Assembly: GCF_030013205.1 (NCBI RefSeq)
Contig: NZ_CP122649.1
Direction: 5' to 3' (one strand)
DNA: 64,000 nucleotides
Origin: Escherichia coli
GTDB taxonomy: Bacteria; Pseudomonadota; Gammaproteobacteria; Enterobacterales; Enterobacteriaceae
The stretch's first letter is position 1; every line of letters begins with the position of its first letter. The position numbers are program-made. Positions 24,301 through 30,300 of this stretch are shown piece after piece.

Positions 24301-27300
24301 ATCGATGTGGGAAAACCCTGAAAGGTGCGACGGGTTTCTGTATCACCTTATTGGCAGTACCGTCAGTTCGGATATCTCCCGCGACAACCCAGAAAAAACC
24401 GGCAGACTCATCGCTCACGCGTTACTGACGGGGGCCTCGATTGAGGATGCCTGTCGCTTTGCCTCAGAGGCTCAGCAGTTCGATACCGCTCTATCGGGAC
24501 TGGCTTACCAGGTAGCCGTGGCCATGAAATTTGTTGCCGGTGATTCTGCGGCCGTAAGGAATGAAGGCCATCCGGTCATTACACTTTCCGACTCCTTCCG
24601 TCTTATGAGAAAAGCAAATATTAACACCCTGACGGCCACACAGAACAACCGGAAATGATGAGCACAAATCGATATGGATGCCGATATTAAGAACGATGAT
24701 TATGTTGACTGTCTCATTGAGCAGGTAACCGTATAGCGGACTGGAACACGAATGCTGATGCTCTACACCAGGCCTGCGGCGCCTTCGTAGATGCACCGCA
24801 TTCAAAACAAACGACAGGTGATAATTTATGAAGTTGACAAAAATGATGGCGACCTTGTTCCTGCTTATTCCCTTGACATCTTTTTCGCAGGAATTGGGCC
24901 AGCGAATATCACAGGATGACAGTGCAGAACTGGCGAATAAGGCAGGTACAGCTTTGACAGAGATGCTTTTGCTAAAAGTTCAGCAATTGCCACAGGTGAA
25001 AAAGAACAGTGGAATGGACCTTGCGGCTGCAAATGACGCTGTTGCTTCCTTACTCAGCAAAGAGTTTTTCATTTTTAAACCAGTTGATGAAATCAGCATA
25101 AAAACCTCTGCTCAAAAATTAAAAGAGCTGAATGATGATGCCGACGCACTTGCTAAGGGGTACACCATCATTCAACCAGATGATGTCGGAAGCTCCTACA
25201 TTTCGTATAAGGTGACGTCCAGCTCTCGAACCTGCTTCATTCGCCTTTCAAAGGATCTGTCATCGTCATTAAATACCAGAATTGTAACTGTGAATAGCAT
25301 GGAGTGTTCGAACCCATAAACCACGTTGACCGGCTAATTCACTTTACGGGGTAAATGAGTTGTGAAACCCATTTTATTTTCACCCTCAATTACAGAAATT
25401 CAAGCCGAATAGAGACTGTAATGATTATTATCCTTGGTGTTCTGCTTTTATTGTCTCTTTTCTTCAATATCTGGTTTTGGGATCACTATATGCGTGTCAT
25501 TCCGTTATCAGCGGATAAAAGTAGCATGTTTGCTATCGCCTCCAGCTGTGAAAACCCTCGGTGGGTGCAAGAAGTTGAGAGCCGTGGGGGGATGACCCGT
25601 AAGGAATGGGCTGACTTTGTGGATCGAAATTTTAACCCTCCTAAATAGAGTAAATTCCGATTGGCATTGTTGCAGGAATTATGGTGCCGCAGCTTATTGG
25701 GTGTTTGTCAATTGCCGGGAAGTATTCGCTGGCATATCACTTAAACGGGAGTAGTAAGTGAGAGAACCTCGTCCACGCCATACATTACAGGTAGTCTGTG
25801 TCCCGTCTCTGAATATACAGGATCTGGGGCTAACCAGTTTTCATAGCTGGCTCTTATCAAAAGGCTATGACACGACCAATGCCAGGAACAACCGTACTTG
25901 CTGGGCAAGGGAAGGTGGCTGGCACCTGAAGCGATGCAGACATCTGGCAACGGGCGAAGATCATTTCTGGTTTATCGCATTCAACGGTACCGGCGGCGAC
26001 ATTTTTCCTGTGAAAACCCAGCAGGACTACCGTGCTGCCTACCGCAAGCTTGAAGCGTATGGATATGCACCGGCCGTTATTGAACAATTGAACACAGGCG
26101 TTGCCTATAATCTTGCTTATTCACGGACACCGTTAAAACGCCCTGAGAGCGCCACCAGCGAACTGAAGCGAAAACCTGACGTGAATATTCAGGGTGAGCC
26201 TTGCGAACGCTTTGTGACCGAACGGAGCAGCGCAGCGCAGAATAAATTCAAAACCCTGCTCATTGAGAACTTCGCCGGTCGGTGTGCAGTCACTGGATGG
26301 GTTAATGGTGGTGTGCTGGTGGCGGCTCATATCGAGCATGGGACGCGCTACAACCCTTCGAACGGCATCCTGTTGACGCCGACAATGCACGCATTGTTTG
26401 ACGCGGATCTGATGGGTATAGACCCTTCAACACTCACCGTTCATTTTAAACCGGGCATCGAGGCGGGAGAGCTGTTTGAAGGAAAAACGCTCAATCCGTT
26501 GGTGTATGATCTGGATACCGACCGGCTGGCTGCTCGCTGGGCTGACTTTATAGGTGCCGAGTGATTGATGGGAAATTCAGCCTATAACCGATGGCAGTGT
26601 TTTCGGGATGGACACCACTTACTGATGGGGGCTGGCTGCACGCCACCTTTATATTGAAATCCAACAGAGTTGATACAACAAATGCAAAATTGCCTTTCGG
26701 GATATTTAAAAGCGACCATTGTTATTTTATCTGCGGGCCTGACAGGTTGCGACCTGGCAAATGGGACTGCGGAAAGTGGTGTGTATCAGAAATACACGAA
26801 TGGACCTTTCAAGGAACCGACTATCGTGATGAGTCCGGGCTGGCGGATGGATGACCACGGCAGGGAAGCACTAATATTCGGGAGCAGCCACTGCCCGGAT
26901 GTAAACGGCAATAATACGTCTGAGGGCGGCTGCGTCCTCATTGAGGAGCACTCTGCGACTGTCGCGGTCACTGTTGTTGATGCGACAAATCAGTCCCGTC
27001 GCCATGAAACCTGGACGATTGAACGTAAAAAGGATCGAGTTATAGTGAAGCGCCCGGATAACAGTTTTGTGATGCCCTGGGGAAAATAGCCAAGATACAA
27101 GATGACCACAAAAATGAATAAGCCGCAATGTTGTTTTGTGTGTTGAACGTCCTGATGGAGCCTTTGACATTTACACTGGCCGTTTTATACAGTTCCACCA
27201 AATTGACAACAGTAGAAGAAAAATTGTTGAAATAAGTGATCCTGACCTGGTGGGGATGACTTATTCAATCCCGATGGTTTTTAACGGAGGGAAGTTCAGT

Positions 27301-30300
27301 GGTCAAGGGGTTACCTGTCTCTCGCTCCCCGCAGTAACATTAATAAAAGTAACTTTTCCTTCCCGAACTTATCAGGAGGGGCAGGAACAAATCACAATGT
27401 CGAGCCCGGACCAGGCACTATTTTCTGAAGATGTCCGGAAAAACTGCGCCGGTACGTGTGTTCTTACCGGCGTTCTAGGCAGACAAAGAACTGAGGCTGC
27501 GCACATAAAACCCCGTCATGCTGGTGGTGAGCCGGATGTGACAAACGGGATTCTACTGCGAAGTGACATCCATATTGGAATTTACTGCTTGGCAGGCATA
27601 ATAAGAGGCAATAGAGTAAAAATCCCGAAAGAACAAGATATGCCATGTACGCTTCAATTAACGATGATATATGTCGGCATCACCTTTTTCCTAATTGTCG
27701 GTTATATCTGCCATCAAATAACTTAGAACTGATTTAGAATTGAATTTGATAAAGCTTACTACAAAGTAGTTTTGTCAATGTTCAACCTGTTTATCAAACC
27801 TACGGTGAATTTTTATGACTGGGAATGGTATCAATACTGTACGCATAAACAACGAAGTGAAACACATCTCAGAGTTAGATCCGGAGATCTCTTTTTCTTG
27901 AATGGAATAAACTGAAAAGTGAAAATAACGAACTGTATCGCTGCATAAAGGAAGCAAATTCTGGTTGGCGTGGTTTTGTCCTTCGTTTAATAGGGGTTTA
28001 TCTACCTGATGGCAAAACAATTGTCATTAAACCCTAGATTATTTGAATATTCCTAAACATAGGCTTAATAAGAAAAGCCACTGAAAAGTGGCTTTTGAAC
28101 TGAGCTGTTCGCGATTTTAATTTCAACTTGGGGTTCTAAGCCGGAACCGCCGAAAATTCCGTCAGCCGATCAACGTGGCTTGTCCCGCGCCCGGTCGATG
28201 GGGTAGACCCAACAGTCGTGTCACTAGCCGCCATTTCGATCACGGCAATGCCAGCCGGACGTCACGTCCAGATTGTTCCGGTCTGGATGAGGCCGACTGA
28301 CGTCTCGGATGACGGGTGGCATACAACTGCTGTGAGTCCTGCAGGGGGGCAGCTGCCTGACCGGACGGCGAGCATCAGCCCATCTCATGTATTAGTCATG
28401 TCAGCTTTGACACTGCGCACGCGACGGCACCCGACCCGTTGCAGACCCCCAGACATATGGAAAGCTGACGCTCAACGTGGAGTTAGCCGGCGCGGCGCGG
28501 CTTCATCGCGCAGCGTCCGTGTTGATGGATGGGTTAGAACTCTCTGGGGCACACATTTGAGAAAGACTATTTTTCAGCCAACGCAAAACCCGCGTTGCCA
28601 GATGCAACCACTGAGACAAATACAAACGGCACTGGACTAGTATTTAGAGCGCCATGCACTTGGCCAGGTTTTGCTATGGCAATATCTCCAGCCTTTAGAT
28701 GAGCGACTTTGCCGCCTCCTTGGTAATACTCAGCCTCTCCAGAGATAACCGTCCAAGTATCTTGGCCGTCCGGGTGAACATGAGCGGTTATTTCTTGCCC
28801 AGGATGGGCATGCCAAACAACAACTGCTGAGTCCTTGGTTTCCAGAACCACTGAACGAATTGGTTCGCCGTCAGACGGACTAATATATTCTGTTACCGAA
28901 AATATTCTTGATTCCATTTCCATATCCACTCCAAAAATCAATTTGGCTTGAGAAGTTATTACAGAACAACTGTATCCGAGAGTTCTACGTTGCCGATAAC
29001 CGGCCCGAAACGGCGGCGCAACGCGCCGCTGTTGGGGGTCCGTGTTCATCGGCGGGTTAGACCTGTGCTTGCGTAAGACGAATATCGACTTCTCGGTCGA
29101 CGTATTTCCATTCCTCTGACGCACGCAGTTCGGAAAGCAGCCTGTTGAACTCAACCTCATGAATTGGCGCGTATTCGAACCAATTCAGAAAATCGAACGG
29201 TTCATTCTCTGAGAGGTCGCGGCAGTGGTGGAGCTTGCGCGCTACTGCAGGCAAATACTGAAGCCCGATTTGGACGTGCTTCGACTGTTCGAAAACGCTC
29301 CGGCGTTCGTCTTGCGTGAGCTCCCACCAAGCTGCGTTCTTCCGGATCGGTATTAGCGCACCGCACGTTGCTTCTGGGCGCGCCAGACCTTGCTGCTTCG
29401 CTACAATTTCATTCTTCTCTGCGCGCATGACATATCGTTCATTGCTGGTTATTCCACGAAGTATCCAGGGTGCATTGGTTTCAGACTGCAACTCTGAAGC
29501 GGATACGACGTTGAGCCTTTTGGCTTCAGGCAGGGGCTCGCCAACTCTCGTTTCGGCCCTGACAATCCGCCAAGGGCCAATGTCTGCGCCGACGAAAGCA
29601 AATAATCGTGTATCCATTTCAATCTTTCATGTGTGAATGTTTTAACTCTTGCAGCTTCGAAGAACCTATCTGCCGATCCCGTGATTGTGCATCATCGCCT
29701 CCGCGCAACTGCGACGACCGCCCGCAGCAATCACATTGAACTTTCGAATCGAAACTGCTGAAGCGAACCTACGCGGACGTACGGCCGCAGTCTGTGCGCT
29801 GCCGGACGGAGCGCTGCCAATTTGCGCCTACTGGCAGGCTGTGAGTGCGCGGATGGGCCAGCGACCTCCCTTCATAGAGGGAGCGAAGCAGGTCAGAGAC
29901 ACTATTGAACGTCCGCTACCGGGAAGATGCTTGACCGTCCGCAACTGGCCGCCTGCCGCCGACCGCGGTCTGGCTCGAAAGCAGTCTGTCAACGCGCCGT
30001 TTCATTGTTGCCATGATCATCTCTTAATCGCGCACAGGCGGCCACAGGCGGGCAGTATGAACCAGCGTCAGTATCCACACCGTTTCGCCGTCGATCTGAT
30101 ACACCAGGCGATAGCTTTCGTGCGGGATCAACTCGCGGGTCCCGGGAATCTTTCCGGCACTGTTGCAAATAGTCGGTGGTGATAAACTTATCATCCCCTT
30201 TTGCTGATGGAGCTGCACATGAACCCATTCAAAGGCCGGCATTTTCAGCGTGACATCATTCTGTGGGCCGTACGCTGGTACTGCAAATACGGCATCAGTT

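Follow-up and report, generated by a model that had tools for sequence, protein, structure and literature searches.

Background

The closest described systems to the locus considered here are HNH modification-dependent enzymes. VcaM4I (EVE-HNH, PDB 6yex) is composed of an N-terminal sensor (residues 1-147), linker helices (residues 148-178) and a C-terminal HNH domain that dimerises, and this HNH domain is non-specifically toxic when deprived of the linker (PMC7897488). Its sensor is an EVE domain of the PUA superfamily reading 5-methylcytosine (5mC) or 5-hydroxymethylcytosine (5hmC); TagI (SRA-HNH, PDB 6ghs) carries an SRA sensor (PMC6212794). Several HNH modification-dependent enzymes are toxic in Dcm+ Escherichia coli (PMC6765204). 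In this work, we analysed a stretch of 64,000 nt of the E. coli contig NZ_CP122649.1 (assembly GCF_030013205.1), hereafter the window, and focused on two HNH-nuclease-type genes located on either side of a lipoprotein gene. They are named HNH1 (open reading frame (ORF) 25758-26564) and HNH2 (the nuclease gene whose remnant lies at 27114-27573).

These genes belong to the backbone of a resistance plasmid of incompatibility group HI1 (IncHI1). IncHI1 and IncHI2 plasmids are major multidrug-resistance carriers in Salmonella Typhi and E. coli, and their backbones are full of unstudied genes. The explanation that we consider probable is that the conserved IncHI backbone once carried two independent solitary restriction-like (type-IV-like) endonucleases devoted to defence or conflict, of which HNH1 is intact and HNH2 is dead, the lipoprotein gene being unrelated to both.

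The locus in the IncHI1 backbone

Comparison loci and proteins are designated below by L and P numbers, respectively. The 2.5 kb around the three genes displays 100% identity to pSA20030575.1 (IncHI1A) and 99.7% identity to pHCM1 of Salmonella Typhi CT18 (locus L001). This region matches 252 plasmid records, nearly all of them large conjugative enterobacterial plasmids, and is found in 118 of 5426 complete E. coli genomes, where it is plasmid-borne at 117 of the 126 places. The Prokaryotic Genome Annotation Pipeline (PGAP) labels the genes, in order, 'HNH endonuclease signature motif containing protein', 'hypothetical protein' and again 'HNH endonuclease signature motif containing protein', so that these sequences are existing database entries with an HNH endonuclease annotation. 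The three genes are part of an ordinary plasmid backbone, annotated before this work, and nothing in their arrangement is mechanistically unusual; the point of interest is which target the N-terminal orphan domain of HNH1 recognises.

The neighbours of HNH1 in the backbone are hns, hha, tus-like and integrase genes. A Pfam scan of the ORFs upstream of HNH1 returned no domain, no methyltransferase domain was found in the immediate neighbour ORFs, and promoter and terminator scans remained at chance level. The original prediction of two HNH ORFs flanking a lipoprotein gene was borne out, all three genes being located where it had placed them and both HNH ORFs scoring above the Pfam threshold. 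The features of the locus are the following:

25758-26564, plus strand: HNH1, GTG start, 268 aa (WP_001209044.1), intact gene for a predicted two-domain nuclease
26682-27089, plus strand: lipoprotein gene, 135 aa with the PGAP start; the ORF listing puts a TTG start at 26670
27136-27726, plus strand: second ORF, TTG start, 196 aa; the PGAP coding sequence covers only 27397-27726 (109 aa)
27114-27573, plus strand: remnant of the HNH2 pseudogene, i.e. start ATG and 5 codons, junction of a 200-bp deletion and ancestral codons 75-220
27574-27726, plus strand: 3' half of a 98-aa membrane-protein gene, joined in frame to the HNH2 remnant by a 482-bp deletion

Nuclease module and conservation of HNH1

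The HNH1 protein contains AAHIEHGTRYNPSNGILLTPTMHALFD and matches the whole Pfam domain HNH_2 (PF13391, gathering cut-off 21 bits) at residues 176-222 (profile positions 1-66 of 66, 29.7 bits, E 6e-07). Three parts can be distinguished. The orphan domain at the N-terminus spans aa ~1-125, the linker, modelled with low confidence, aa ~107-155, and the C-terminal HNH_2 module, of nuclease/dimerisation type, aa ~156-268. The catalytic-type residues H191 (26328-26330), N202 and H211 are accompanied by an invariant D215, and every residue invariant across the wider family is kept (Q161, F164, C176, H191, N202, G203, H211 and D215). In the AlphaFold model, the predicted local distance difference test score (pLDDT) reaches 70-93 at residues ~156-268, is poor in the linker and amounts to ~50-73 in the N-terminal domain.

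HNH1 is intact and under strong purifying selection, and both of its domains are constrained. Its orthologues are syntenic, with 88% protein identity in the IncHI3-like contig L005 and 79% in L012 (IncHI2), where the protein has 271 aa. The ratio of non-synonymous to synonymous substitution rates (dN/dS) is 0.14 in the comparison with L005 (N-terminal domain 0.11, C-terminal module 0.14) and 0.07 in that with IncHI2 (0.08 and 0.04, respectively).

The module of HNH1 is homologous to that of modification-dependent enzymes. Its best structural matches are all of this kind, TagI and VcaM4I being the closest, and VcaM4I is the only sequence relative of HNH1 in the PDB (E 0.12 when the single sequence was the query, improving to 1.8e-11 for the family profile). 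HNH1 shares with VcaM4I the same layout, i.e. N-terminal domain, linker and C-terminal HNH domain; however, the EVE reader has no detectable similarity to the N-termini of HNH1 or HNH2, and identity in the aligned part is 19%. TagI differs by its SRA sensor, absent here, and at 17% identity was not recovered by sequence search. EcoKMcrA and ScoMcrA/SBD-HNH (NF045808, phosphorothioated DNA-binding restriction endonuclease) gave scores of 17-23 bits against a cut-off of 180, over the nuclease part only, so that HNH1 and HNH2 are not members of this family; the sensor domains NEco, SBD and SRA were not detected in either protein. PADLOC HNH models match HNH1 at E 3.7e-09, again over the nuclease part only and far below family cut-offs, and Foldseek searches against viral structures returned HNH-domain matches only. 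The strongest profile matches to the module are two phage families, phrog_23050 and phrog_20585 (E 1.9e-35 and 1.6e-27, respectively, for HNH1; E 4e-21 for HNH2), in which only the last ~110 of 337-383 profile positions match and the N-terminal parts differ.

HNH1 relatives also occur stand-alone in non-IncHI elements (P0017 and P0084), with no methyltransferase among the called neighbouring genes, and truncated HNH1 alleles exist (P0010-P0016). In L006 (8661-12306), genes with CTD7, MC3 and LmuB_C (Lamassu-type) domains, a defence-island-like cargo, are located downstream of P0017 and an integrase. Other cargo (SNF2, DNA_pol_A and AlpA) occupies the same integrase position in L007.

Double deletion of HNH2

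The second ORF contains AAHIKPRHAGGEPDVTNGILLRSDIH and matches HNH_2 at 30.0 bits over profile positions 1-55 of 66 only, compared with 42.1 bits and positions 1-66 of 66 for the HNH2 form of pHCM1 (236 aa). Its HNH core had been described as apparently degenerate. It is indeed decayed, not by point mutation but because deletions cut it off: far from lacking the catalytic His and Asn on alignment, the ORF keeps the Asn as well as the first and the last His, the helix being cut right after this last residue. Lost from the remnant are the rest of the TLFD helix with its invariant Asp, ~75 C-terminal and 74 N-terminal residues and the start codon context. With the invariant LFD Asp gone, the catalytic core is incomplete.

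The extent of the remnant was read from a protein alignment with the intact P0043, P0044, P0045 and P0049 and from a DNA alignment to L003 and L005, and the 482-bp deletion from a comparison of the window with pHCM1. The original start, ATG-AAT-AAG-CCG-CAA (MNKPQ), is kept at 27114-27128, and intact relatives also start with MNKPQ. The 200-bp deletion (L003 8017-8214; junction 27128/27129) then shifts the frame, leading to a stop after 10 codons. Positions 27136-27573 correspond to codons 75-220 of an ancestral protein of ~296 aa and end at the last catalytic His. There the 482-bp deletion, relative to pHCM1, has removed L001 6076-6557 (junction 27573/27574, with ~2 nt of microhomology). Residues 147-196 of the 196-aa ORF display 65% identity to the C-terminal half of a 98-aa protein (L005 8999-9295); the ORF is a chimera of the HNH2 remnant and a membrane-protein tail.

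An intact form of the gene does exist in related plasmids, as the original prediction had proposed to verify: its product measures 285 aa in IncHI2 plasmids and from 291 to 303 aa in IncHI3-like ones. Compared with these intact relatives (285-303 aa: P0043, P0044, P0045 and the IncHI2 orthologue), the 236-aa form of pHCM1 is also truncated. The 200-bp junction is contiguous in 127 plasmid records, among them pHCM1 and the prototype R27, and the undeleted 5' segment was found in only 43 records, all at 80-90% identity and IncHI3-like (e.g. NC_019360). The segment removed by the 482-bp deletion was matched by 113 records with at least 95% identity. By subtraction, an estimated ~14 of the 127 R27-like plasmids carry the second deletion, and at least 12 window-type records were seen directly. 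HNH2 is dead, the 200-bp deletion being fixed in the R27/pHCM1 lineage and the 482-bp deletion having followed in a sub-lineage. The former is a clean lineage marker of all R27-like plasmids and the latter marks the sub-lineage. Between the remnant and pHCM1, 3 non-synonymous and 0 synonymous differences were counted, too few for dN/dS.

Further events affect the same region. Truncated HNH2 alleles also occur in IncHI2 (residues 75-284 or 161-284), and ISApl1 and IS3 insertions were observed. The pHCM1 form of HNH2 has Asn in place of the last catalytic His (SDINTLFD), and in the same plasmid the small membrane-protein gene (L001 6411-6711), intact (98 aa) in L005, is broken into ORFs of 62 and 75 aa in two different frames. 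A further deletion accounts for P0055 (393 aa), from another E. coli/Enterobacteriaceae record, in which the N-terminal part of the 401-aa ORF 23453-24658 is fused in frame to the tail of the chimeric HNH2 ORF. On IncHI5 plasmids, a backbone gene named 'hnhc (HNH endonuclease)' is split by IS903B, ISEc33 or ISEc33:IS10L in many plasmids (PMC6339943), a parallel, drawn by description only, to the recurrent inactivation reported here.

Relation between the two nucleases

HNH1 and HNH2 share only the nuclease module (~105 aa), with 30% identity over 104 aa, and the module of HNH1 has nearer relatives than HNH2, with identities of up to 45%. The N-termini are unrelated, also by hhalign. Because only the nuclease module is common, and at 30% identity, the sequences identify the two genes as old paralogues, not recent duplicates. 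A recent duplication was rejected on the same grounds, and with it the suggestion of a simple duplicated nuclease.

The two genes have also been lost reciprocally. R27-like plasmids retain only HNH1 intact; in the IncHI-type contig L003, HNH2 is intact, and a Tn3-family transposon has taken the place of HNH1 and of the lipoprotein gene's 5' end. Since L003 keeps HNH2 without HNH1, neither gene needs the other.

Two associations of HNH_2 genes were recorded outside these backbones. In L022 (5094-7623), an unrelated metagenomic element, a 264-aa HNH_2 protein is encoded directly upstream of the 540-aa HNH1-type P0079, with IS200/IS605 tnpA-tnpB just downstream. P0085 (426 aa) carries two HNH_2 domains besides a domain of the HNH1 N-terminal type, and its first 38 residues share 76% identity with the start of the window ORF 22652-23080; judging by these features, it has the appearance of a fusion created by deletion in a related backbone.

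The N-terminal domains

The N-terminal domain of HNH1 is characterised by the core motifs HTLQ...GGWH(L/I)K.C...FW.I.F.G.GG...Q.DY..AYR. An exhaustive profile search of 1.84 billion representative proteins retrieved it in only 19 clusters, most of which are fragments or known orthologues. The five longest matches (426-540 aa), the only full-length ones beyond known orthologues, reveal the coupling of this domain to HNH_2, since all have HNH_2 directly downstream; four of these five longer proteins also bear a long N-terminal extension. The distribution of the domain is thus very narrow and mostly restricted to enterobacterial mobile elements, and no relative was found in 2.9 million viral contigs. 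The search for a specificity or sensor domain in the first protein, proposed with the original prediction, led to no known family (Pfam, PDB profiles, hhalign, PADLOC, NCBIfam and PHROG), and PADLOC, NCBIfam and PHROGs likewise gave no identification of the HNH2 domain. The HNH2 N-terminal model is beta-rich and unreliable, with pLDDT below 50 for residues 1-168.

The intervening lipoprotein gene

The product of the middle gene starts with a signal peptide, MQNCLSGYLKATIVILSAGLTG-C-D, ending in a lipobox of the type [LVI][ASTVI][GAS]C, namely LTGC, with Cys23 at 26748-26750 and Asp at position +2. The sequence indicates a genuine lipoprotein, because LTGCD and two further Cys residues are invariant down to 33% identity (four homologues, 33-78% identity). 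An Asp after the lipobox Cys leads to inner-membrane retention (+2 rule), and the protein is accordingly predicted to be retained in the inner membrane, facing the periplasm. Searches of Pfam, PADLOC, NCBIfam and PHROG assigned it to no family.

In IncHI2, the slot between the two nuclease genes is occupied by unrelated 141-aa and 102-aa genes, and distant lipoprotein homologues are located on IncHI5 and Buttiauxella plasmids without HNH neighbours; for the IncHI5 homologue, no annotated HNH gene lies within ~37 kb in one direction or ~12 kb in the opposite one. The lipoprotein was rejected as part of a nuclease module by this replacement and by these contexts, and on comparative sequence grounds its gene is an unrelated passenger.

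Possible functions of the locus

Under the explanation that we favour, i.e. two independent solitary restriction-like endonucleases, each nuclease would recognise its target through an N-terminal domain of its own, joined by a linker to a C-terminal HNH_2 module of the type found in TagI and VcaM4I. HNH1 would bind DNA or a DNA feature via its orphan N-terminal domain, dimerise through the HNH module and cut DNA, and its role would be defence or inter-element conflict on the plasmid's behalf. As expected of type IV enzymes, a recognition-type domain and a C-terminal nuclease are found in one polypeptide (AlphaFold model and alignments), and no cognate methyltransferase is adjacent, the nearest DNA methylase being encoded at 51880-53307. 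A conserved restriction-like backbone nuclease could influence which phages or competing plasmids the host tolerates, and the orphan recognition domain could be a new DNA-feature reader of practical use, like other modification-dependent enzymes.

Several observations weigh against this explanation. Pfam gave no match to either N-terminus at E-values up to 10, PDB profile searches with both N-terminal domains returned no relatives, and hhalign against an EVE-like N-terminal alignment gave a probability of 0.1%. Neither domain can be assigned to a modified-base reader family (PUA/SRA/EVE/YTH, NEco, SBD, winged helix or DUF3427), and the AlphaFold models of both are weak, as seen from the scores given above. 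The adjoining of two different HNH_2 genes in IncHI1, IncHI2 and IncHI3-like plasmids and in the unrelated element L022, and their fusion in P0085, hint at cooperation more than at complete independence. The plasmid also encodes its own C5 cytosine methyltransferase (51880-53307), with which a 5mC-dependent enzyme would be at odds if both had the same specificity. Finally, no study of these genes was found in the literature.

A bolder version, possible and clearly more doubtful, is that the ~125-aa N-terminal domain of HNH1 is an unrecognised reader of DNA modification or structure which would define a new modification-dependent nuclease family on IncHI resistance plasmids. The recurrent HNH_2 pairing may then reflect a two-enzyme system, and the repeated loss of the partner may reflect self-toxicity in Dcm+ hosts. 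That self-toxicity caused the repeated HNH2 loss is speculative, an idea suggested by the toxicity of related enzymes in Dcm+ E. coli together with the plasmid's C5 methyltransferase.

HNH1 might otherwise be a plasmid housekeeping nuclease, acting in conjugation, recombination or the processing of multimers or replication intermediates, with an N-terminal domain that binds a plasmid-specific structure or partner. This would agree with its fixed backbone position by the hns, hha, tus-like and integrase genes in IncHI1, IncHI2 and IncHI3-like plasmids, with the strong purifying selection on it and with the narrow distribution of its N-terminal domain, mostly in enterobacterial mobile elements. 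We nevertheless regard it as unlikely: the module is nearest to restriction enzymes and not to relaxases or resolvases, the IncHI-type contig L003 has lost HNH1 entirely, truncated alleles exist, and relatives are found in non-IncHI elements.

That HNH1 is a sequence-specific type II-like enzyme, with the protecting methyltransferase encoded elsewhere on the plasmid (e.g. 51880-53307), is improbable. The C5 DNA methylase is located ~7.5 kb from HNH2 in the uninterrupted backbone, and both proteins match PDLC03546, an HNH model of PADLOC described as 'Type II restriction enzyme', with E-values of 1e-3 to 1e-5. However, the methylase gene is non-adjacent and on the opposite strand, with hns and several unrelated genes in between, to which a 17.7-kb insertion is added here; the stand-alone relatives P0017 and P0084 have no methyltransferase among their called neighbours, and the best structural matches are all modification-dependent.

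Colicin operons carry a lysis lipoprotein, and the order nuclease-lipoprotein-nuclease superficially resembles them, as if a DNase toxin were accompanied by a lipoprotein serving as lysis, immunity or export factor and by a second DNase. Such a toxin or bacteriocin-like cassette is very improbable and effectively excluded by comparative context: the conserved linkage of nuclease and immunity or lysis gene is missing, as the unrelated genes in the IncHI2 slot and the lipoprotein homologues far from any HNH gene illustrate. Moreover, no signal, translocation or receptor domain was found in HNH1, the nuclease family is HNH_2 and not colicin DNase, and the mature lipoprotein comprises ~112 aa and not the ~28 aa of a lysis peptide. 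The earlier suggestion of a decayed toxin or restriction-like module consequently holds in part, HNH2 being a decayed restriction-like nuclease that is intact in relatives; the lipoprotein does not belong to it, and a toxin module is unsupported.

Least credible is a homing role for the HNH ORFs, either inside a mobile intron or intein or as free-standing genes: the sole point in favour is that HNH motifs are common in homing endonucleases, and the reading, raised beforehand for the first ORF, is effectively excluded by context, with no interrupted host gene, no intron or intein, a fixed backbone position across IncHI lineages with syntenic orthologues whose protein identity of 79-88% between diverged backbones fits vertical descent, an HNH_2 domain of non-homing type with a restriction-type C-terminal extension, and an N-terminal domain of which no relative was found in the viral contigs.

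Downstream surroundings

Neither pHCM1 nor L003 has the 17.7-kb accessory insertion (28130-45815) that separates the region downstream of HNH2 from the stop codon of the plasmid-borne hns. At its two junctions, a 6-bp overlap between the pHCM1 coordinates may represent a target-site duplication. The insertion contains the following features:

28567-29160, minus strand: cupin gene
29057-29617, minus strand: chlorite-dismutase-family gene
30201-30923, 39014-39736 and 42776-43498: three IS26-type transposase ORFs
42953-45784: Tn3-family transposase

The backbone then resumes with the H-NS paralogue gene and includes:

45820-46224, minus strand: plasmid H-NS paralogue
46755-47441, minus strand: DUF6884 protein
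50261-51556, minus strand: DUF1173 protein
51880-53307, minus strand: orphan C5 cytosine DNA methyltransferase, 475 aa

The last of these could matter for any modification-dependent nuclease that the plasmid encodes.

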